DNA of 29,063 nt from Patescibacteria group bacterium (GTDB lineage: Bacteria; Patescibacteriota; Minisyncoccia; Phycocordibacterales; UBA5272): the NCBI GenBank assembly GCA_030837425.1, contig JAUPLJ010000001.1, forward strand, positions 1 through 29,063. Reading direction: 5' to 3'. The notes beneath the pieces are model-generated. The model was given only the letters and a program-made list of their open reading frames with translations, searched no databases and had not been told where the DNA came from. A program made the translations under genes and the position numbers. Every line of letters starts with the position of its first letter. Position 1 is the stretch's first letter. Positions 6,931-16,809 of this stretch are shown one piece after another.

Positions 6931-8187
6931 TTATATTAGATTCAATCCGAAATATTTATCCACTTCTTTTATTGCTAAAAATTTTTCACTGTCAGATACA
7001 TCTTTATCGTTTATAAGAGACCAAAGAGTGGCCAGAGCGATAGAAGTATTTAGATCGTCATTCATTGCATTCACAAATTTTTCGTAATAATTTTTTATTT
7101 CTTCTGAAGGTGCAACTTTTTCTGTTTCAGAAATGTTTGGTGCGGCACTCAATTTTATTTTTTCAACTTGCTTTAATAATTTTTGATAAGCGGTGTTTGC
7201 TGCATCAAGTGAATCCCAGGAGAATTTCATTTCTTTTCTATAATGAGTCATGAGAAGTAAATATTTATAAGCTAGGGGAGAAATATTTTTTTCTTTTATG
7301 CTTTCAAGCCTTATAAATCCTTCGCCACTTTTAGCCATTTTAATTTTGTCTAAAATAACGTGATTTAAATGCATCCAAATATTTACAAATCTTTTTCCAT
7401 CATCACAACTTGATTCACTTTGAGCTATTTCGTTTGTATGGTGTATTGGTATATGCTCTATACCGCCTGTATGTATATCTAAATGATTTCCTAAAACTGC
7501 GCGACTCATAGCACTACACTCAATATGCCATCCAGGAAACCCTACTCCCCAAGGAGATTCCCATTCCATTTGTCTTTTTTCTTTTGAAAATTTCCATAAA
7601 GCAAAGTCTGTTATATTTTTCTTTTCATTTTTTTCATCATCAACTCTTTTTCCTTTTTGTAGTCCTTCTATATCTATTCTTCCTAATTCTGCATAATTTA
7701 TAAATTTACTTGTATCAAAATAAATTCCATCACTTGTTTTATAGGCATATCCTTTTTCTTCTAGAATTTTTACCATTTCTATCTGCTCTTTTATATAGTC
7801 AGTAGCTTTACTCCAAATAAATTTTTCTTTATTGATATTCAAATCTTTTAGATCAGAATAAAATGCTTGTGTATAAAATTCTGCCACGTCCCACACTGAT
7901 TTTCCTTCTCTTTCAGAGCCTTTTTCCATCTTATCTTCTCCTTCATCTCCATCTGAGACTAAATGCCCAACATCTGTGATATTTATTTGATGCTTAAGAT
8001 TATATCCAGCCTCACTTAAAGTATTATTTAAAATATCCGCAAAGATATAAGCTCTCAAATTCCCAATATGAGCATAATGATATACAGTTGGCCCACAAGA
8101 ATAGATTTTTATTTCTCGTGAATCAATTGGTTTAAAAATTTCTTTCTCTTTTGAGAGAGTGTTGTATAGTTTTATCTCTTTTGCCAT
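6931..8187 (-). CDS. cysS: Cysteine--tRNA ligase, C-terminally short (418 aa)
   Basis: CGPTVY..HIGN, DFALWK, GFPGWHIECSAM, DIHTGG..HHTNE, KMAKS and AMNDDLNT helix bundle. Confidence 0.96.
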   Translation of the reverse strand: MAKEIKLYNTLSKEKEIFKPIDSREIKIYSCGPTVYHYAHIGNLRAYIFADILNNTLSEAGYNLKHQINITDVGHLVSDGDEGEDKMEKGSEREGKSVWDVAEFYTQAFYSDLKDLNINKEKFIWSKATDYIKEQIEMVKILEEKGYAYKTSDGIYFDTSKFINYAELGRIDIEGLQKGKRVDDEKNEKKNITDFALWKFSKEKRQMEWESPWGVGFPGWHIECSAMSRAVLGNHLDIHTGGIEHIPIHHTNEIAQSESSCDDGKRFVNIWMHLNHVILDKIKMAKSGEGFIRLESIKEKNISPLAYKYLLLMTHYRKEMKFSWDSLDAANTAYQKLLKQVEKIKLSAAPNISETEKVAPSEEIKNYYEKFVNAMNDDLNTSIALATLWSLINDKDVSDSEKFLAIKEVDKYFGLNLI

Positions 8188-8261
8188 AACTTTTTATTTG
8201 TTTTTATTTTAGCATATATTCTATTATATTTCCTGTGTTATAATTCGAAGATATAAAAATT

Positions 8262-9533
8262 ATGAAAAAACCAATCTTAAAAAATCCCTTTAAAAATGCC
8301 TTCAAAAATGGTAGCGAAAGAGTAAAATATGTATATGTAGCGATAATCGCGATATTCTTCTTTATTTTTGGATATATCTTTGCTAATATTTCCCCATCTC
8401 GCATTACTTTATTTTCTCCTGCTTCTGCTTCTTCTGGGACCATAGCTATACCACCAATTCTTTTAGAAGTTCAAAATATTTTGGATCAAAATTTTATTTC
8501 TTGGAAAGCTTCTTCTACTTTACCTACAGCTCAAGAGTTAAGCTATGGGATAATAAAAGGATATGTTGAAAGCTATAAAGATCCATATACAGAATTTTTT
8601 ACTCCACAAGAGTCAAAACAATTTGAAGGAAATATAAAAGGAAGCTTTGGAGGAATTGGAGCATATATTGGATACAAAGAGGGATACACTGTGATAATTT
8701 CTACAATTAAAAATAGTCCTGCAGAAAAAGCTGGGATAAAAGGTGGAGATATTATCGTCGCAGTAGATGCGACTTCAACCAGGGGCATGTCTTCTGACGA
8801 AGTTGTTAGTTATGTACGAGGAGATATAGGCACAAGTGTGACTCTAGAAGTTCTTCATAAAAATGAATCAAAGACTTCAAAAATAAAAATAACTAGAGCA
8901 AAAGTTGATATTCCAATTTTAGACACAGAAATAAGAGGCGATGTATTTGTAATTCATTTTTATTCATTTACAGAAGATTCAGCTTCAAGATTCCAAGATG
9001 CTTTAAAGAAATTTGCAGATTCAGGAAAGACAAAGCTACTTCTCGATCTGAGAGGAAATGGTGGTGGATATTTAGGCTCTGCAATAAATATAGCCTCATT
9101 CTTTTTATCAAAAGATAAATTGATAGTATCAGAGAAAAATAGTAAAAATGAAGAAGATAAAAAAGACTATTCATTAGGCTATGATTTCTTTGATCATAAA
9201 ATATTAAAATTAGGAGTGCTTATTGATGGAGGATCTGCTTCTGCTTCTGAGATTTTAGCTGGAGCTTTGAAAGATAATGGAGTCGCTACAGTGATAGGAG
9301 AAAAATCTTTTGGAAAAGGATCTGTCCAACAACTTATAAAATTAAGTGATGGATCCGATATAAAAGTGACAGTTGCAAAATGGTTTACCCCAAACGGAGT
9401 AAATATTTCAGAAAATGGAATTCTTCCAGATGTGATTGCCACAAGCTCTGAAGTAATTAAATTTGATAAAGCTGGAAAAGCGATTGATGTGCAACTAGAA
9501 AAAGCGATAGAAATAGTAAATAATTTAAAATAA
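8262..9533 (+). CDS. ctpA: S41 family carboxy-terminal processing protease (CtpA-like) with N-terminal membrane anchor and PDZ domain
   Basis: DPYT, FGGIG PDZ loop, DLRGNGGG, SASASEILAGAL (catalytic Ser), GKGSVQ (catalytic Lys). Confidence 0.93.
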   Translation: MKKPILKNPFKNAFKNGSERVKYVYVAIIAIFFFIFGYIFANISPSRITLFSPASASSGTIAIPPILLEVQNILDQNFISWKASSTLPTAQELSYGIIKGYVESYKDPYTEFFTPQESKQFEGNIKGSFGGIGAYIGYKEGYTVIISTIKNSPAEKAGIKGGDIIVAVDATSTRGMSSDEVVSYVRGDIGTSVTLEVLHKNESKTSKIKITRAKVDIPILDTEIRGDVFVIHFYSFTEDSASRFQDALKKFADSGKTKLLLDLRGNGGGYLGSAINIASFFLSKDKLIVSEKNSKNEEDKKDYSLGYDFFDHKILKLGVLIDGGSASASEILAGALKDNGVATVIGEKSFGKGSVQQLIKLSDGSDIKVTVAKWFTPNGVNISENGILPDVIATSSEVIKFDKAGKAIDVQLEKAIEIVNNLK

Positions 9534-9545
9534 AATACAAAAATA

Positions 9546-9591
9546 AAAAACCTTTAGTTATACGATGAATATCGTCTGACTAAAGGTTTTT
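9546..9591. terminator. Long bidirectional hairpin between ctpA and the 76-aa ORF
   Basis: AAAAACCTTTAGTTA..ACGAT-GAAT-ATCGT..TGACTAAAGGTTTTT. Confidence 0.8.
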
Positions 9592-9606
9592 CCTAGTTGA
9601 AAGTTT

Positions 9607-9837
9607 TCAACGTGTTGGAATCATGGTGTGCCCAGATTTCAACTCAATGATTCTGTTTTTAAGCCAAACAAAGCCTTTTTTAGTAATTTTTCTTTTAATT
9701 AAAATTTCTTTAATAATAAAGTCTTTTAAAAAGAAATCTTTATTATTAAAGATTTCCGCAAGAATGTTTACTTTTTCTTTTTGTTTGTTAAAAAGATCAT
9801 CAACCGGAGAAGTTCTGTGAGATTGATTTGGTTTCAT
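9607..9837 (-). CDS. Small basic hypothetical protein, 76 aa
   Basis: ATG ORF with a near-consensus minus-strand promoter (TTGACA-17-TAAGAT) upstream and a hairpin downstream. Confidence 0.6.
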   Translation of the reverse strand: MKPNQSHRTSPVDDLFNKQKEKVNILAEIFNNKDFFLKDFIIKEILIKRKITKKGFVWLKNRIIELKSGHTMIPTR

Positions 9838-9867
9838 CTTTAAAAATTTTTAAAAATAACTTTATAT

Positions 9868-9918
9868 ATCTTACCAGATAATATATTTTTTGTCAAAAAG
9901 AAAGTTATCTGTTAAAAT
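9868..9918. promoter_or_regulatory. Overlapping divergent sigma70-type promoters
   Basis: Minus: TTGACA (9896-9891), 17 nt, TAAGAT (9873-9868), with TG. Plus: TTGTCA (9890-9895), 17 nt, TAAAAT (9913-9918), with TG. Confidence 0.75.
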
Positions 9919-9939
9919 AGATTTATTAACTAGCACAAT

Positions 9940-10407
9940 ATGAAAGTAATATTTATTCAAAATGTAGCCAAGCACGGCAAGATAGGAGATATAAAAGAAG
10001 TCGCCGACGGATTTGCGATAAACGTCTTAATTCCAAAGAAGCAAGTCGTGATAGCTACTCCACAAGCAATAAAAAATCTCGAGACAGAGAAGAAGACAAA
10101 AATAAATAAATTAGAATTGACTAAGAATCTTTTTTTACAAATGACAAAGTCTTTGGAAGAAAAATTACAAAGCCAAAAAGAAAATAAAGGAATACTAGAG
10201 ATAGTGGGGCACAAGCATGACAAGGGGCATTTGTTTTCAGCTATTTCTGAGCAAGATATAGTAGATGCTATTTTTAGATTATTAAATGTTTCTTTAAATC
10301 CATCTCAAGTGATTTTACCAAAAGAAAAGATTAAAAAGCATGGCGAATATGAAGTAGAATTGAAAGATAAAGAAAATAAAAGAAAGATAAATATTTTAGT
10401 GAAGTAA
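9940..10407 (+). CDS. rplI: 50S ribosomal protein L9
   Basis: MKVIFIQNVAKHGKIGDIKEVADGFA.N.LIP N-domain; GHLFSAIS and IKKHGEY C-domain; 155 aa. Confidence 0.93.
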   Translation: MKVIFIQNVAKHGKIGDIKEVADGFAINVLIPKKQVVIATPQAIKNLETEKKTKINKLELTKNLFLQMTKSLEEKLQSQKENKGILEIVGHKHDKGHLFSAISEQDIVDAIFRLLNVSLNPSQVILPKEKIKKHGEYEVELKDKENKRKINILVK

Positions 10408-10424
10408 AAAATAATTTAAATTAT

Positions 10425-10463
10425 AAAATAAAAACCTCGTAAAATTTACGAGGTTTTTATTTT
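10425..10463. terminator. Bidirectional terminator between rplI and rpmA
   Basis: Perfect 19-bp inverted repeat AAAATAAAAACCTCGTAAA-A-TTTACGAGGTTTTTATTTT. Confidence 0.9.
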
Positions 10464-10478
10464 AATAGTTTAGAGAGC

Positions 10479-10751
10479 CTAGATGACATTGATAACTTTC
10501 TTCATTTTGATTGTGTTATCAAATTTTGTTTGTCTCTTTTGAGTCATTGTCACTTTTCCATCTTTTAAAGCAAAAAGAGTGTGATCTCTTCCAAGTCCAA
10601 CATTTTTTCCAGCTAAAAATTTTGTTCCTCTTTGGCGGAGAATAATATTTCCAGCTATTACAGTCTCTCCAGATCCTTTTTTAAGACCAAGATACTTTGG
10701 TTGACTGTCTCTCAGGTTTTTCGCGGTTCCCGCCGCCTTACGATGTGCCAT
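10479..10751 (-). CDS. rpmA: 50S ribosomal protein L27
   Basis: [46 protein letters not shown]. Confidence 0.98.
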
Positions 10752-10780
10752 AGTTTTAGTGTATAATTATTAATGTTTTT

Positions 10781-11122
10781 ATGGGTAAAAGTATAACAGA
10801 AACTCTAAAAAAAATCAATATCGAGCTATCGGGCGGAGTTTTTTATTCTCTCCTTATTTCTATTGTCGTTTTAGATCTTTTTATGGGTTTTAAAATATAC
10901 AATATCTATAAGTCTAAAAATAGTGACCATTTAATCTATCAAAAATCTTCCATATTAAATTCATCGACAGACTCAAATTCTAAAATCTATGCAAGTAGTA
11001 AAGGGAGTAAATATTATTTTCTAAATTGTAAATCAAGCATAAAAGAAGAGAATAAGATTTATTTTAATTCTGAAATAGATGCTGAAAACGCTGGATATTC
11101 TTTAGCAAAGACTTGTAAATAA
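10781..11122 (+). CDS. Membrane-anchored protein with C-terminal Ada metal-binding-like domain
   Basis: TM segment at about aa 17-38; ASSKGSKYY..C..IKEENKIYF.S..DAENAGY..AKTC resembles the Ada_Zn_binding fold but has only 2 Cys. Confidence 0.7.
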   Translation: MGKSITETLKKINIELSGGVFYSLLISIVVLDLFMGFKIYNIYKSKNSDHLIYQKSSILNSSTDSNSKIYASSKGSKYYFLNCKSSIKEENKIYFNSEIDAENAGYSLAKTCK

Positions 11123-11248
11123 TTACTAAATTTTCACTCTTGACTTTTTTATATTAAAATATTAGAATAGCGAATGAAAGTATTATTCATATACTTAAGC
11201 AGTTAGTTTTGTATGAGGACCTCATTTTTATGGGGTCCAATCTTTTTT
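11107..11248 (+). repeat. Mini transcription unit A (tandem repeat copy 1): promoter, 46-nt core, terminator
   Basis: 17-bp block AAAGACTTGTAAATAAT (11107-11123); TTGACT (11140-11145), 17 nt, TAGAAT (11163-11168); hairpin GGACCTCAT-TTTT-ATGGGGTCC (11217-11238) followed by a T-run. Confidence 0.85.
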
Positions 11249-11381
11249 AAAGACTTGTAAATAATCAATAAATCCCAGATTGACTTTTTTATATTAAAAG
11301 ATTAGAATATAAATATCATAATGTCTACGGGCTTTAGGATTTTGGAGGAGGACCCTATTTTTATAGGGTCCAAATTTTTTT
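11249..11381 (+). repeat. Mini transcription unit B (tandem repeat copy 2): promoter, 39-nt core, terminator
   Basis: Same 17-bp block (11249-11265); TTGACT (11280-11285), 17 nt, TAGAAT (11303-11308); hairpin GGACCCTAT-TTTT-ATAGGGTCC (11350-11371) followed by a T-run. Confidence 0.85.
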
Positions 11382-11422
11382 GTAGTATTTACTTTTCAAT
11401 AATATGGTGATATGATTATTAT

Positions 11423-11602
11423 CCCTAATGAGTGGAGTAAAAAGTTGTTCTTTTTTGAGTGATATGCTTACACAGAGAGTGAGCACATCATTAAAGAATT
11501 CGATATCTTCCATGTGTTGAAACATAACAAATATCTCTTTAAAAATTTGTTGAAAAGAATAACTTTACCCAAAAACAACATGTACGTTTTTGGGTTTTTT
11601 TT
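11423..11602 (+). ncRNA. Candidate structured ncRNA, about 180 nt
   Basis: Promoter TTTACT (11388-11393), 17 nt, TATGAT (11411-11416) with TG; 14-bp long-range stem 11441-11454/11553-11566; hairpin 11459-11491; terminator 11567-11602; no convincing ORF. Confidence 0.5.
11567..11602 (+). terminator. Intrinsic terminator
   Basis: ACCCAAAAAC-AACATGTAC-GTTTTTGGGT followed by a T-run. Confidence 0.85.
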
Positions 11603-11642
11603 ATGATATAATTTATACATAAATAATATAATTTTTAAATAT

Positions 11643-11711
11643 ATGGCAAAAGGAAATTTTTCACAAAGAAAAGAAAAGAAAAAACCAAAAAAAGAAAAAG
11701 AAGTAAAATAG
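11643..11711 (+). CDS. 22-aa Lys-rich microprotein MAKGNFSQRKEKKKPKKEKEVK (not in the ORF track)
   Basis: ATG 11643 to TAG 11711; TG-n-TATAAT at 11604-11612 upstream; terminator hairpin 7 nt downstream. Confidence 0.65.
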   Translation: MAKGNFSQRKEKKKPKKEKEVK

Positions 11712-11717
11712 TTTTTT

Positions 11718-11750
11718 AAAACATCTCGAGAGTTCGAGATGTTTTTGTTT
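11718..11750 (+). terminator. Palindromic terminator, family copy 1
   Basis: AAAACATCTCGA-GAGT-TCGAGATGTTTT followed by TGTTT. Confidence 0.85.
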
Positions 11751-11774
11751 GCTATAATAAACAAAAATAATTAT

Positions 11775-12236
11775 ATGTTAAAAATAGGCGATACAGCACC
11801 AAGTTTTAAATTAAAAGATCAAAATGGAATCGAGCACACCTTAGATCAGTATCTAGATCAAAAGAAAAAAGTTTTGATTTATTTTTATCCAAAGGACGAC
11901 ACCCCAGGATGCACCACAGAAGCTTGCAGCTTTCGTGATGGATTGAAAGATTTAGAGAGTCTCGGCCTCGCTGTACTCGGTATCAGTAAAGATAGCGTCG
12001 CAAGTCACAAAAAATTTGCAGAGAAATATAAATTAAATTTTCCAATTCTTTCAGATGAGGGCCTAGAGATGATCAATTCCTACGACGCCTATGGACCAAA
12101 AAAGTTTATGGGTCGCGAGTATGATGGAGTTTCTCGCAAAAGTGTCCTTGTAAACAGAGAAGGGCATATTGAAAAGATTTATGAAGAGGTGAAGCCAGAG
12201 GAGCATGTTGATGAAGTGAAGGAGGACGTGAAGTAA
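11775..12236 (+). CDS. bcp: Thioredoxin-dependent thiol peroxidase (Bcp/PrxQ); start moved to ATG 11775
   Basis: LKIGDTAPSFKLKDQ, YFYPKDDTPGCTTEACSFRD, GISKDSVASHKKFAEKY. The ORF-track start at 11739 lies inside the terminator. Confidence 0.95.
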   Translation: MLKIGDTAPSFKLKDQNGIEHTLDQYLDQKKKVLIYFYPKDDTPGCTTEACSFRDGLKDLESLGLAVLGISKDSVASHKKFAEKYKLNFPILSDEGLEMINSYDAYGPKKFMGREYDGVSRKSVLVNREGHIEKIYEEVKPEEHVDEVKEDVK

Positions 12237-12240
12237 AATT

Positions 12241-12801
12241 ATGCTAAGCATAGTTAAAGTCGGAGGTCGCGATTTAGAATACACCCTTAGAGTTAGCGAT
12301 AAAGCAAAGAGAGGCAGGATTACCATTAATCATGAAGGGAAAGTGATACTGACAAAGCCTAAAAGAGTCAGTCTAGAATCAGTTGAGAAATTTTTAATCT
12401 CAAAAGCTGATTGGGTTTTTAAAAGTCTCGAAAAATTTAAAAATCTACCAAACCGTCTCGATACCAAAAATACTAAGCGAGAATATTTGGAAAATAAAGA
12501 AAGTGCACTGGCTTTAGCTAAATCGCGGATACAGTATTTCAACAATATATACAATTTTAAATTTAATAAAATCATAATAAAAAATCAAAAGACAAGATGG
12601 GGAAGTTGCTCCAAGCGTGGCAATCTAAATTTTAATTATAAGATAGCATTATTGCCACAAAACATTTCTGATTATATTATCGTCCACGAGCTGTGTCATT
12701 TAAAAGAATTTAATCATTCACAAAGATTTTGGGATTTGGTAGCCATCGCAATACCGGATTATTTAGTCATAAGGAAAGAATTGAAAGGAGAATTGGTATA
12801 A
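12241..12801 (+). CDS. YgjP/DUF45-family M48 (SprT-like) zinc metallohydrolase
   Basis: KNQKTRWGSCS..GNLNFN..DYIIVHELCHLKEFNHSQRFW. Confidence 0.9.
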   Translation: MLSIVKVGGRDLEYTLRVSDKAKRGRITINHEGKVILTKPKRVSLESVEKFLISKADWVFKSLEKFKNLPNRLDTKNTKREYLENKESALALAKSRIQYFNNIYNFKFNKIIIKNQKTRWGSCSKRGNLNFNYKIALLPQNISDYIIVHELCHLKEFNHSQRFWDLVAIAIPDYLVIRKELKGELV

Positions 12802-12816
12802 ATTGAGAGAAATTGG

Positions 12817-12836
12817 GGTGTTTTTGTTTTAGAAAT
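12817..12836 (+). repeat. 20-bp direct repeat, identical to 13677-13696
   Basis: GGTGTTTTTGTTTTAGAAAT at both positions. Confidence 0.85.
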
Positions 12837-12866
12837 ATAGTGATAATTTAATGATAAAATATAATT

Positions 12867-13466
12867 ATGATTATAGAAGTTGATGAATATAAAAATAAAA
12901 TTAAAAATTATGATCCAAAAAGATCTGAAGATTTTCATGTAGAAAGTGCTAAGCTTGCGGACATTGATTTTAAAAAGCAACTCAAAACTCAAAAACATAA
13001 AAGAATAGTCTTTATGGCTGGAGGAACTGCAAGTGGAAAAACTGAATTCGCTCACACATACCTAACTAAAAATAATATATTAGTATATGATGGTACTTTA
13101 AAAAATTACGATGGTTTTAAAACTAAACTAGATAAAATAAAAAGATATTCAAAAAATAAACCAACGGTTAAAGTTATATTAATAATTCCAAAGAGTATAT
13201 ATTTATCTTTAGGTGCTTTTTTGAAAAGAGAAAGAAAAATGAAAATAAACACATTTTTTGAAACACAAATAAAAAGTAAATTGGTTGTAGCACAAATACT
13301 AACAGATACAAAATTTAGGGTTGATATTTATGTTAGTTCTATAGGAGAAGGAAAATTAAAATTTTCTAAACTTGCTAATGATGCGAAAAGAAAATATAGA
13401 GCTAATTTTCTACTTAGACTTGCTGATATTATCCACAGTATAGCCGTTAAGAATAACATTGAATAG
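12867..13466 (+). CDS. P-loop protein, zeta-toxin/AAA_33-like kinase
   Basis: Walker A in IVFMAGGTASGKT and a Walker-B-like ILVYDGTL; 199 aa; AT-rich. Confidence 0.7.
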   Translation: MIIEVDEYKNKIKNYDPKRSEDFHVESAKLADIDFKKQLKTQKHKRIVFMAGGTASGKTEFAHTYLTKNNILVYDGTLKNYDGFKTKLDKIKRYSKNKPTVKVILIIPKSIYLSLGAFLKRERKMKINTFFETQIKSKLVVAQILTDTKFRVDIYVSSIGEGKLKFSKLANDAKRKYRANFLLRLADIIHSIAVKNNIE

Positions 13467-13513
13467 TTATTCTTTTTGTGGTAAATTTAATATATATAAA
13501 TAATAAATAACTT

Positions 13514-13651
13514 ATGACAGAAAATGTATTAGGAATGAATTTGAGAATAAGTAGAATATTTAAAGCTCCCAAAAGTGAGATTGTTTCAGCATATATACGT
13601 GCTGCAAAAGAAGGAAAAAATGAAGCAGAAAAAATTTTAAAAAATAAATAA
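13514..13651 (+). CDS. 45-aa hypothetical protein MTENVLGMNLRISRIFKAPKSEIVSAYIRAAKEGKNEAEKILKNK (not in the ORF track)
   Basis: ATG 13514 to TAA 13651, filling the gap between the P-loop gene and a terminator 5 nt downstream. Confidence 0.7.
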   Translation: MTENVLGMNLRISRIFKAPKSEIVSAYIRAAKEGKNEAEKILKNK

Positions 13652-13655
13652 ATTT

Positions 13656-13696
13656 AAAAACACCTCGATTTCTCGAGGTGTTTTTGTTTTAGAAAT
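13656..13696 (+). terminator. Palindromic terminator, family copy 2
   Basis: AAAAACACCTCGA-TTTC-TCGAGGTGTTTTT followed by GTTTTAGAAAT. Confidence 0.85.
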
Positions 13697-13722
13697 TGAG
13701 TGGTATAATAATTAAATTATAT

Positions 13723-16700
13723 ATGGCTTCATTATTTAAAAATAAATTAATAAAAGAAGAATTAAATAATTTTACTATTTCAGATATAAAAAATAAGATT
13801 TATATCTTAAAAAAGTGGGATGAGGCTAGAAAAAGCGGAGAGATTTATAATATTTCAGAGTCAGGGGCAGAACAATCTTTTAATCAAGATATTTTTTGTG
13901 AGGTGCTTGATTATAAAAAATTTCCAAATTCTGATTATACTGTATCTGTAAAAGAAAATACTGAAATCAAAGGAGGGCAAACAGCCGACGCGGCTCTCGG
14001 GTTTCATTTTAATAATGAAAAAGAAATTTCTGTGCAAGTGGTTGTAGAAATAAAAGATGCAAATAAAAATCTTGATAAGCCTCAACAAAGAGCAAATAGT
14101 GAGACTCCAGTACAACAAGGCTTTCGATATAAGTCAGGATTTAGAAATGTAAAATTTGTAATAGTTACAAACTTTTTAGAAATCAGACTTTATCGTGATC
14201 ATCAACTTGATTATGAAAAGTTTGAACTTTCAGATCTTGTAGATTCAAAAGATAATTATTTTAATTTTAGAAAGTTTTATTTTTTGATGTCTGAAGAAAA
14301 TTTAATATCAAAAGTTGGTGAATCAAAAACAGAAAAACTTTTATCAAAAATCAAAATAAATCAAGAAGAAATTACAAAAAAGTTTTATAAAGAATATAAA
14401 GATTTACGATTAATATTGATAAACGACATTAAAGATAATAATGAAAATCTTTCTTTTGATTTTATTATAAAAAAAGCACAAAAATTAATAGACAGATTAG
14501 TTTTTATTTGTTTTTTTGAAGACAGTGGTTTATTGCCAGAAAATAAGTTAAGTGAAGTTATAGAATATGCAGGTAAGCAAGTAGGTCTTTCTAGTTGGAG
14601 TATATTGAAAGATTTTTTTATGGCAGTAGATAAGGGTAGTGAAAGATTGGAAATACCTAATGGTTATAATGGGGAATTATTTAAACAAGATATAGAGCTG
14701 GATAGTTTAAATATCAGTGATAATATTTGTGAAAAATTTGTAAAATTATCACGTTTCAATTTTAATGAAGATCTTTCTGTTAATATTTTAGGTCATATTT
14801 TTGAGCAGTCCATATCTGATCTCGAAAAATTAAAAGCATATAGTGAAAGTGGTGGTGAAATTAAAAAGGACAATATAGAAGAGAAAGTAAATAAAAAAGA
14901 TAGCAAAAGAAAAAAAGACGGCATTTTTTATACTCCAGAATATATTGTGGATTATATTGTGAAAAATAGCTTAGGAAAATATTTAGAAGAAAAAGAAGAA
15001 AGAATATTAGAAAAACATAATATAGAAAGTCAGAAAATAAAACTAGATAAAACCTATAATAAAAAATTACTTGAATGTTACAAAGAATATAAGGAAGTAT
15101 TACAAAATATAAAGGTTGTAGATCCTGCTTGTGGATCAGGAGCATTTCTCGTACGAGTCTATGATTATTTATTGGAAGAAAATCTTAGAGTCAGAAAAAT
15201 CATAAATGATGCAGAAAAACAAATTGATAAAAAGATCGGTGGCTCTCTTTTAGATAATAATGAAATCATAAAAACAGAAATAAAATCTGTTTTGAAAAAT
15301 AATATTTATGGAGTAGATCTCAATGAAGAGTCAGTAGAAATTACCAAGCTTTCTCTTTGGTTAAAGTCTGCCAAGAAAGGCGAGAAGCTCACAACTCTTA
15401 AAGACAATATTAAGTGTGGCAACTCTTTGATAGATGATCCGTTAGTGGCTGGTGACAAAGCTTTTAATTGGCAGTCATCCTTCCCTGAAGTTTTTGTGCA
15501 AGGCGGTTTTGATGTGGTGGTTGGCAATCCACCATATGTCAGGCCTCATAATTTAAACACCAAGGATAAAGAATATTTTTGGGGCAATTATAAGTCATTT
15601 AAAGCAAAGAGTGATCTTTATGCAATTTTTATGGAAAAAGGTATTGAAATCTTATCTAAGAATGGTTTTTTATCTTTTATAACACCACATACTTGGATGT
15701 ATTTAGAAAGTTTCGATGTTATAAGAAATATGTTATATGAAAATGGATTAAATAAGATTATTAAAGCTGATAAAAAAGTTTTTCAAGATGCGCAAGTAGA
15801 TTCTGCTATTTTTATTTTAAATAAAAGTGATGAAAATAAAAATATAGAAATATCTTTGATTGATAAAGATGGGGTAGAATGTTTTGAAAAAAGTATTTTT
15901 ATAAAAGATATTCTACCAAATAAGGTATTAAGTATAAATAATATAGCTGGGGGATTAGTTGAAAAGATAGAAAGTAATTCTGTTCATCTTAGTGAGATAG
16001 TAAAATTTAATTATGGATTAAAGACAGCCGATGATGAAAAGTTTTTGACTTTCAAACCAACAAATGATTTAAGGTATAAAAAGTTATTAAGAAGGGGTGA
16101 TTTTGATAGATATGTGACAGAATATAAAAATGAATATGTGTTGTATGATCCAGAGTTAATGAGAAAAAATAAAAATACAGCAAGACCTGGAGATAAAGAA
16201 AGATTTGAAAATATAAAAATGATAGTTATGGATATTGCCACAAAGTTGAAAGCCACAATAGATGAAGAGGGGTATTATGTAAAGGACGCATTGTTACTCT
16301 CTACTAAGGATAAAGATACTATGTATTTTTATTTATCTATATTAAATAGTAAATTATTAAATTTTTATTATTCAAACAAATATAAAGTTATAAGTGTTGC
16401 AAAAAATGCTATTTTAGATTTACCATTTCCAACAAACATTGATCAAAAGTCCCAACAACCTTTTGTTGAAAAAGCTGACGAAATACTAAAATTAAATAAA
16501 GAATATCACGAAGAATTAAAAAGTATCTTAGACTTTTTGAAAAGCGAATTTAGGTTAGAAAAAATAAATAATAAACTTGAAAAGTTTTATAATATCTCTT
16601 TTGAAGATTTTTATAAATCAGTAAAGACAAAAAATATTGAGTGGGGGATAGATAAAAAAGAAGAATGGTATAAATGGTTTTCTCAAAAACAAAAAAGTAT

Positions 16701-16809
16701 TTTAGATAAGAAAAATAAAATTGATGAGACGGATAGGGAGATAGATAGCATGGTTTATGTACTTTATGGATTAACAGAAGAAGAAATTAAGATCGTTGAA
16801 AATAAATAA
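13723..16809 (+). CDS. Type IIG (Eco57I-like) restriction-modification fusion: endonuclease, amino-MTase and target-recognition region; start moved to ATG 13723
   Basis: N-terminal ADAAL..VVVEIK nuclease motif, GIFYTPEYIVDYIV, motif I DPACGSGAFL, YGVDLN, motif IV VVVGNPPYV, FITP and a C-terminal TRD-like region. Confidence 0.9.
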   Translation: MASLFKNKLIKEELNNFTISDIKNKIYILKKWDEARKSGEIYNISESGAEQSFNQDIFCEVLDYKKFPNSDYTVSVKENTEIKGGQTADAALGFHFNNEKEISVQVVVEIKDANKNLDKPQQRANSETPVQQGFRYKSGFRNVKFVIVTNFLEIRLYRDHQLDYEKFELSDLVDSKDNYFNFRKFYFLMSEENLISKVGESKTEKLLSKIKINQEEITKKFYKEYKDLRLILINDIKDNNENLSFDFIIKKAQKLIDRLVFICFFEDSGLLPENKLSEVIEYAGKQVGLSSWSILKDFFMAVDKGSERLEIPNGYNGELFKQDIELDSLNISDNICEKFVKLSRFNFNEDLSVNILGHIFEQSISDLEKLKAYSESGGEIKKDNIEEKVNKKDSKRKKDGIFYTPEYIVDYIVKNSLGKYLEEKEERILEKHNIESQKIKLDKTYNKKLLECYKEYKEVLQNIKVVDPACGSGAFLVRVYDYLLEENLRVRKIINDAEKQIDKKIGGSLLDNNEIIKTEIKSVLKNNIYGVDLNEESVEITKLSLWLKSAKKGEKLTTLKDNIKCGNSLIDDPLVAGDKAFNWQSSFPEVFVQGGFDVVVGNPPYVRPHNLNTKDKEYFWGNYKSFKAKSDLYAIFMEKGIEILSKNGFLSFITPHTWMYLESFDVIRNMLYENGLNKIIKADKKVFQDAQVDSAIFILNKSDENKNIEISLIDKDGVECFEKSIFIKDILPNKVLSINNIAGGLVEKIESNSVHLSEIVKFNYGLKTADDEKFLTFKPTNDLRYKKLLRRGDFDRYVTEYKNEYVLYDPELMRKNKNTARPGDKERFENIKMIVMDIATKLKATIDEEGYYVKDALLLSTKDKDTMYFYLSILNSKLLNFYYSNKYKVISVAKNAILDLPFPTNIDQKSQQPFVEKADEILKLNKEYHEELKSILDFLKSEFRLEKINNKLEKFYNISFEDFYKSVKTKNIEWGIDKKEEWYKWFSQKQKSILDKKNKIDETDREIDSMVYVLYGLTEEEIKIVENK

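Follow-up and report, generated by a model that had tools for sequence, protein, structure and literature searches.

Two tandem units of about 140 bp, designated A and B, lie on the + strand of a 29,063-nt contig (JAUPLJ010000001.1, GenBank assembly GCA_030837425.1) from a Patescibacteria group bacterium. The units are probably adjacent, independently transcribed genes for trans-acting, base-pairing small RNAs (sRNAs) with a predicted length of ~65-75 nt, members of a multicopy family resembling FopS of Bacteroides thetaiotaomicron. That they are not a new guide-RNA defence system we regard as settled. The family to which they belong is most likely one typical of Chitinophagaceae (Bacteroidota) and their phages, and it was most likely acquired by horizontal transfer from Bacteroidota, possibly via phages. 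Patescibacteria account for a large part of bacterial diversity and are mostly uncultivable, and to our knowledge regulatory small RNAs are almost unknown in them.

The whole 29-kb contig is referred to below as the window. It is one of 63 contigs (C43) of a 515-kb genome that is 87.5% complete and has a G+C content of ~29%. Between this genome and a 'Candidatus Parcubacteria' metagenome-assembled genome (MAG), ribosomal protein L9 is 92% identical; the other relatives are Paceibacteria-type Patescibacteria, and the organism was detected in freshwater and wastewater samples. Genomes of its genus, part of the candidate phyla radiation (CPR), carry G-labels, with G000 denoting the source genome.

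Anatomy of units A and B

Reading of the sequence, a repeat finder and pairwise alignment placed unit A at 11099-11240 (142 bp) and unit B at 11241-11381 (141 bp); the repeat was not reported by Tandem Repeats Finder because the two copies are too diverged. Unit A consists of the 3' end of an open reading frame (ORF), a promoter, sRNA A and a terminator. The ORF (10781-11122, + strand) encodes 113 aa without a match to any Pfam family; the left edge of unit A is formed by the final 24 nt of this ORF, stop codon included, and unit B begins with a noncoding copy of this 3' end. The exact 17-mer AAAGACTTGTAAATAAT is found at 11107-11123 in A and at 11249-11265 in B. In A it comprises the final four codons and the stop codon of the ORF (..KTCK-stop), a point overlooked in the preliminary description of this locus; the repeat thus is a true tandem duplication, ~141 bp long, in which coding sequence was copied into a noncoding place.

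The promoter of unit A, assigned to the sigma-70 type on the basis of its motifs, spans 11140-11168 and has the -35 box TTGACT (11140-11145), a 17-nt spacer and the -10 box TAGAAT (11163-11168); the corresponding promoter of unit B spans 11280-11308. Across 30 nt (11140-11169 versus 11280-11309; TTGACT-17-TAGAAT) the two promoter blocks are identical at 29/30 positions. The block occurs only twice in the 515-kb genome at <=3 mismatches and had no match in 185,579 species genomes, so the repeat is not a chance resemblance. Downstream of promoter A, sRNA A (11172-11249) is predicted as a ~75-nt transcript that would start at about 11173-11176. Its seed, CATATACTTAAGCAGTTAGTTTTG (11188-11211), contains CAU, the anti-start codon, and terminator A (11217-11248) follows with a 9-bp stem (11217-11225 paired with 11230-11238), a U-rich loop and a T-run. 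sRNA B (11310-11382, predicted ~66 nt) is a sibling that has diverged and carries a seed of its own (..UCAUAAUGUCUACGGGCUUUAGGAUUUUGGAGGA), a hairpin at 11350-11371 and a T-run to 11381. The two hairpins (11217-11238 and 11350-11371) are GC stems of 9 bp each, followed by a T-run, and they differ by one change from U.G to C-G and one compensatory change from C-G to U-A. Predicted folds have the terminator hairpin 3' of the seed region (z-scores of -3.0 to -3.7); they also pair part of the seed region into a weak upstream hairpin that is not common to the homologues.

Identity between A and B is strongly mosaic. Pairwise alignment gave 27/33 over the ORF 3' end and the bases that follow it, about 0/8 in the 8-nt linker ahead of the -35 box, 29/30 in the promoter block, about 14/37 in the core, and 36/42 over the last seed bases, hairpin and T-run. 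When aligned against shuffled sequences, the cores gave p=0.12 globally, 0.06 for the last 24 nt and 0.69 for the 5' parts, the only similarity being TTAG..TTTTG.A.GA adjoining the hairpin; the preliminary description, which had called the cores dissimilar, was thus essentially right. Its structural observations, namely two ~140-bp units with a 17/17 block, a 29/30 promoter block and 9-bp stems with structure-preserving changes, were all reproduced, and its reading of the units as self-contained small-RNA genes, in which promoter and terminator belong to the unit, the 5' pairing segment varies and the 3' hairpin is conserved, is supported. The mosaic is compatible with selection, or gene conversion, acting on the common expression signals while the seed diverged or was exchanged. 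Kept promoters and terminators combined with differing seeds are the pattern expected of sibling sRNAs with different targets. The seed of unit B was absent from the ~1.5 Mb of Bacteroidota and viral loci examined, and no seed donor was found among them.

Homologues in Bacteroidota, phages and sister species

The decisive evidence for homology came from a model (R3) built from 22 Chitinophagaceae copies only, without any CPR sequence. R3 matched unit A with 58.6 bits (E=1e-11) and unit B with 33 bits (E=3.8e-5); it also matched the orthologues in G011, G006 and G010 (E=1e-12 to 6e-11) and other array units of G004, G006 and G011 (1e-5 to 1e-2). Terminator A is homologous to the family hairpin. 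In the alignments of this hairpin, two-sided changes are seen at 9/9 pairs, and pairing extends to 98-99% of cells versus ~62% in shuffled and 26-47% in slid controls; fitting these alignments to the model favours pairing, but the effect is large nonetheless. A second model (R2), trained partly on CPR copies, gave 7-13 matches per genome in five Chitinophagaceae genomes. The genes next to these copies are inconsistent and include two TonB-dependent receptors, a carbonic anhydrase, an HPPD-like protein and proteins of unknown function.

Exact-pattern scans recovered the type-1 seed of the family together with linker and terminator hairpin in Danxiaibacter flavus, Filimonas zeae and Chitinophagaceae MAGs, as well as in contigs from soil and other metagenomes. 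The exact seed in these Chitinophagaceae and soil metagenome matches is at least 20 nt long, and the linker GGTTGCG or the hairpin apex GTTTCYAC is common to several of them and the CPR copies. The type-1 seed is also present in 37 IMG/VR viral contigs; all but two of these contain a full-length match, one of the exceptions being cut by the contig end and the other holding an 18-mer only. The viral matches are complete sRNA genes in the same orientation. The invariant part of the type-1 seed, AAGCAGUUAGUUUUG, is found exactly in unit A at 11197-11211 and is lacking from unit B. A second seed type of the CPR arrays, GGUUUUUCAnAGGAUAUUGGAUU, was found in more than 120 genomes of Chitinophagaceae, Chitinophagales and Sphingobacteriales, where the copies follow a Bacteroidota-type promoter box and some stand in tandem pairs with a period of 135-215 nt. 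Overall, seeds of 16-21 nt are letter-identical between CPR and Chitinophagaceae copies. As a separate observation, some of the tandem type-3 pairs in Chitinophagales genomes (L249, L267, L270, L278 and L305) differ hardly at all over their whole length; duplications in tandem are therefore frequent in the donor lineage as well.

Homologues within the genus were first recognized through a weak BLAST match to G011, in which the 3' half of core A, the linker and a compensated hairpin lie upstream of nusA, followed by a second promoter-core-terminator unit. A covariance model of A, B and this G011 copy (R1) gave matches in G011, G006 and G010 (E=6e-12 to 5e-4). The 16-mer TAAGCAGTTAGTTTTG (11196-11211 in A) occurs without mismatch in G000, G006 and G011, each time at a different locus, and is identical in G006, G011, Chitinophagaceae and the viral contigs. 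Other near-matches to it in the genus fall within coding sequences or a tRNA gene and are attributed to chance. The L9 proteins of the species that share the identical 16-mer are only about 55-68% identical.

In sister species, arrays of 0 to at least 9 units were found. These arrays sit between a glycosyltransferase gene and tRNA-Trp, and their units are self-contained, each with an extended -10 promoter, a 35-60-nt core, a GC hairpin with the apex ..GU-UUCY-AC.. and a U-run. The number of units ahead of tRNA-Trp is 0 in G012, 1 in several species, 2 in G010 and G003, 4 in G004 and G006, and at least 9 in G011. At about 470-560 on contig C1 of the source genome (L049), a probable promoter-core-hairpin unit (..UUAGACAGGUAGGCUAGCGGC.. 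plus hairpin and U-run) is located upstream of the tRNA-Trp gene (597-667); it resembles the 'GAUAAGGUU' seed type of the sister species and was not reported by R3.

Strong matches to the family are confined to this genus among 41 genomes of its taxonomic family, with one borderline match in a sister genus, and no copies were found in the sampled genomes of the order (141) and phylum (151). The confinement of strong Patescibacteria matches to a single genus makes horizontal acquisition the most likely explanation. The CPR copies carry sigma-70-type promoters in place of the Bacteroidota-type box of the donors and were thus most likely re-equipped after transfer. Assembly chimerism is an unlikely source of the matches because several independent MAGs have the units within AT-rich contigs that carry CPR ribosomal genes.

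Units A and B occupy a slot that varies within the genus. Both lie in a 616-bp spacer between the 113-aa ORF on the left and bcp/AhpC (11739-12236) on the right. The end of the ORF and a 22-aa Lys-rich small ORF, MAKGNFSQRKEKKKPKKEKEVK (11645-11713, + strand), are syntenic in genomes of the same genus, and the interval between them (11123-11640 of the window) differs. In most relatives (loci L004-L013) it holds a gene for a 94-150-aa CxxC/GFTPH Zn-ribbon-like protein with a conserved leader, TTTTTGTACCTTT; one genome has two Zn-ribbon copies, and the exceptions are G003 with another gene and G008 with 50 bp only. No remnant of the Zn-ribbon gene was found in G000 by tblastn. Units A and B are therefore a lineage-specific filling of this slot.

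Sequence reading and a scan for promoters and terminators resolved the 616-bp spacer into a series of four promoter-terminator units. Besides A and B, these are a unit at 11388-11602 (+ strand) with a TG-extended -10 box, ~180 nt and a strong terminator (CCCAAAAAC..GTTTTTGGG plus T8), which was missed by the FopS-like models and has no Rfam match, and the 22-aa small ORF, which has its own promoter (11603-11632) and terminator (11718-11745). Across the genus, the family and parts of the order, no part of the spacer is better conserved than the DNA of this small ORF, and the versions in some relatives carry an added CGCxGKCK tail. Between the Zn-ribbon gene and the small ORF of G001 (L010:540-740) is a GC-richer promoter-to-terminator unit of ~170 nt that looks like a structured RNA and had no Rfam match at the gathering threshold. 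Farther out, the window encodes rplI and rpmA upstream of the units and ygjP, a zeta-like P-loop protein and an MmeI-type restriction-modification gene downstream; a tRNA scan of the window found none.

Proposed mode of action and competing explanations

FopS of B. thetaiotaomicron has 14 paralogs, with a copy occurring on a phage, and acts by pairing close to the start codon of susC-like mRNAs, which it represses; the protein that binds it is RbpB, which has a single RRM, and 12-15 FopS paralogs are found per Bacteroides genome (PMC11697453). By analogy with FopS and GibS, the CAU-containing seed of the RNAs described here would bind target mRNAs around the start codon by base pairing and repress their translation. 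In each gene a promoter of the sigma-70 type precedes a 5' seed that is mostly single-stranded and a Rho-independent terminator hairpin, and A and B would be transcribed separately. The promoter/terminator scan found no terminator of the upstream ORF ahead of unit A, and sRNA A may in addition arise as a 3'-untranslated-region (3'-UTR) product through read-through from this ORF. In unit A the canonical type-1 seed is present of the family abundant in Chitinophagaceae and their phages, which most likely entered the CPR genus horizontally and was re-equipped with sigma-70 promoters. Unit B originated in the ~141-bp tandem duplication, in which the last codons of the upstream ORF were copied too, and its seed would subsequently have diverged or been exchanged while promoter and terminator were kept.

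The likely RNA-binding partner of the predicted sRNAs is a 94-aa protein with a single RNA recognition motif (RRM_1, 78.9 bits; G000:C42:9220-9504, - strand), encoded once per genome in 15/15 genomes of the genus. Bacterial RRM proteins are uncommon outside a few phyla, and by analogy with RbpB this one is a plausible partner. We considered and rejected co-transfer of the RRM gene with the sRNAs, as RRM_1 proteins are encoded in 66/101 genomes of the order.

Several observations weigh against this proposal. The same distribution makes the RRM protein unspecific to sRNA carriers, and the source genome has only two clear copies of the family, plus the probable one ahead of tRNA-Trp. Pairing of the RNAs with 444 start regions of the organism's own genes was no better than that of shuffled sRNAs: the best interaction had -22.6 kcal/mol versus shuffled minima of -19.8 +/- 1.6 (lowest -23.1), and the strongest predicted pairing of unit A lies over the start AUG of an Elp3-like gene (C48). 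No RNA run holding the locus was found in a search of sequencing runs. Contigs from four DNA runs gave an identical strain and a 94% relative ending at 11169, and joints with 30-nt sides in such contigs were judged unreliable. The Rfam model of FopS (RF04319, BTncRNA_FopS) had no match in 10700-11900 of the window even at E<=10. Its best relevant matches in the genus scored 20.8 and 19.5 bits, and those in Chitinophagaceae at most 33.6 bits, under the 56-bit gathering cut-off; at E<=1 control genomes give matches too. What ties the units to FopS itself is therefore their architecture together with a partial similarity of the seed. Finally, the seed of unit B, matched nowhere else, may be drifting.

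Some of these points would also suit inert leftovers, that is, transferred and locally duplicated DNA that is unexpressed or has no targets and whose motifs survive only through recency. The slot between the ORF and the small ORF is a variable hot spot in the genus, the unit B seed is unique, target signals do not exceed those of shuffles and no RNA run contains the locus. We nonetheless consider this explanation unlikely. A 0.5-Mb genome seldom retains junk, and the linker ahead of the promoter and the cores are at ~40% identity or less, yet the promoter (29/30) and the hairpin, with a compensatory pair, were kept, which argues for selection on the expression signals. The identity of the 16-mer seed across species whose L9 proteins have diverged so far, and the presence of sigma-70 promoters instead of the donors' Bacteroidota-type box, likewise speak against recent inert DNA.

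A further explanation, which we think rather improbable, is that the RNAs of this epibiont are directed at its host, where they would act on Chitinophagaceae mRNAs after transfer or titrate a host RNA-binding protein. The 16-21-nt seeds are letter-identical to Chitinophagaceae copies though SusC-type targets are missing from the CPR cell, the family was found in one CPR genus only, no convincing target was found in the organism's own genome, and the samples with the organism come from freshwater and wastewater. The exact seeds would be accounted for equally well by recent or repeated transfer, or by carriage on phages, however, and literature searches gave no reported pairing of Chitinophagaceae with Patescibacteria. 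If this explanation were true, the captured sRNA family would name the host lineage and serve as a tool of host manipulation in episymbiosis.

It is very unlikely that the units are cis-acting punctuation, with the hairpins as tandem terminators of the upstream ORF, the promoter blocks driving downstream genes and the short RNAs as by-products. The upstream ORF does have no other terminator, and the spacer is composed of four promoter-terminator units, but each promoter of A and B is followed within ~50-60 nt by a strong terminator of its own and therefore cannot drive a downstream gene. In addition, the segment of unit A from promoter to terminator is its most conserved part across species and phyla.

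The preliminary description had favoured a CRISPR-spacer-like or guide-RNA array at the edge of a defence island, and the variable 34-41-nt 5' segments with a constant 3' hairpin, the varying number of units among relatives and the MmeI-type restriction-modification gene 2.3 kb downstream are compatible with a CRISPR-, TIGR- or OMEGA-like system. This is now hardly tenable. Core A is no acquired hypervariable spacer: as a seed it shows exact conservation in different species and even phyla, unlike spacers, and each unit has its own promoter. Searches with the cores yielded no protospacer-type matches: the best in the organism's own genome was a 13-nt exact match, which is at chance level, collections of phages and plasmids returned only AT-rich promoter fragments (E 0.006-1), and the IMG/VR matches are whole sRNA genes in the same orientation. 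A Pfam scan of the nine flanking ORFs (6931-16809) found no nuclease gene adjoining the units, the genome encodes no Nop/Tas protein, no effector gene is linked in the contexts examined, and in other genomes the family adjoins tRNA-Trp, nusA and unrelated genes and not defence genes. The other possibility raised in that description, leaderless micro-ORFs, builds on the ATG at about +1 of unit A (MKVLFIYLSS) and can be extended to a 29-aa frame through the unit B hairpin, but it has next to no plausibility, as the 10-aa ORF is not conserved in G006, G010, G011 or the Chitinophagaceae copies, the hairpin changes keep base pairs and not amino acids, and the unit B frame crosses the terminator and T-run.

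Under the preferred reading as sibling trans-acting sRNA genes, a single CPR genus carries a start-codon-type sRNA family otherwise of Bacteroidota and their phages, fitted with the recipient's promoter type and locally duplicated. The locus would then be a clear case of cross-phylum transfer of a noncoding regulator and yields candidate riboregulators along with a candidate RRM partner in a 0.5-Mb genome. It also hints at Chitinophagaceae as the donor, and possibly the host, of these epibionts, which is testable.

Comparison with known systems

Tandem sibling sRNAs that each have their own promoter and terminator include LhrC1-4 of Listeria, PrrF1/PrrF2 of Pseudomonas and the csRNAs of Streptococcus, which depend on the regulators LisR, Fur and CiaR, respectively. 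Units A and B share with them a head-to-tail arrangement derived from duplication, common expression signals and partly diverged pairing regions, but no sequence relationship. CRISPR and TIGR-Tas arrays (PMC12045711) are likewise made of tandem short units with a constant and a variable part whose number varies among relatives; in the present case each unit has a promoter and a terminator in place of a single leader, identical direct repeats and a Cas or Tas/Nop effector are lacking, and the cores are conserved.

The preliminary description knew of no named system with this layout, which is in fact that of multicopy or sibling sRNAs such as FopS (PMC11697453). Like FopS and GibS, the RNAs predicted here are ~60-75 nt long and have a free 5' seed with CAU ahead of a Rho-independent terminator. 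Other likenesses are the paralogs, numerous in some sister species and in Chitinophagaceae and few in G000, some of them in tandem and some derived from 3'-UTRs, the copies on phages and the availability of a single-RRM protein. The shared architecture is borne out by the folds of A, B and the G011 copy, by the terminator scan and by the covariation of 9/9 hairpin pairs. The FopS consensus opens with GUGUUUUUCAUAGUAUUAGAUUUAAGGUU, that is, GUGUUUUUCAUAG..UUAGAUUUAAGGUU, and the R1/R1' seed consensus is GUGUUUUUCAUAGUAUUAGAUUUAAGG (PMC11697453, supplement file 4). The type-3 units of CPR and Chitinophagales open with GGUUUUUCAUAGGAUAUUGGAUUU / GGUUUUUCAUAGGAUAUUGGAUUUAA and are much closer to this consensus than unit A, UAUUCAUAUACUUAAGCAGUUAGUUUUG, which has UUCAUA and UUAG.UUU in common with the FopS seed (UUCAUAUA and UUAGUUUUG are kept) and differs in the remainder. 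The present units further differ from FopS in the seed downstream of CAUA, in their sigma-70-type promoters versus the sigma-ABfr type of Bacteroides, and in their Patescibacteria host, which has no SusC or polysaccharide utilization locus (PUL) targets and in G000 only two, perhaps three, copies. Searches of the window and related loci against Rfam at gathering and permissive thresholds gave no family at its cut-off.

The closest relatives are the multicopy sRNAs of Chitinophagaceae and Chitinophagales captured by R2 and R3. Unit A differs from them by a 5' extension of ~15 nt and the sigma-70 promoter, unit B by its own seed, and both by their location in a 0.5-Mb CPR genome. Unit A shares with the Chitinophagaceae copies the exact seed AAGCAGUUAGUUUUG, the U-rich hairpin loop and a similar length, the copies in sister species have the same linker and GUUUCYAC apex, and tandem pairs occur in both lineages. 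Given the RF04319 scores below the cut-off in both lineages, we file this family as an undescribed sister family that, by analogy, would work like FopS.

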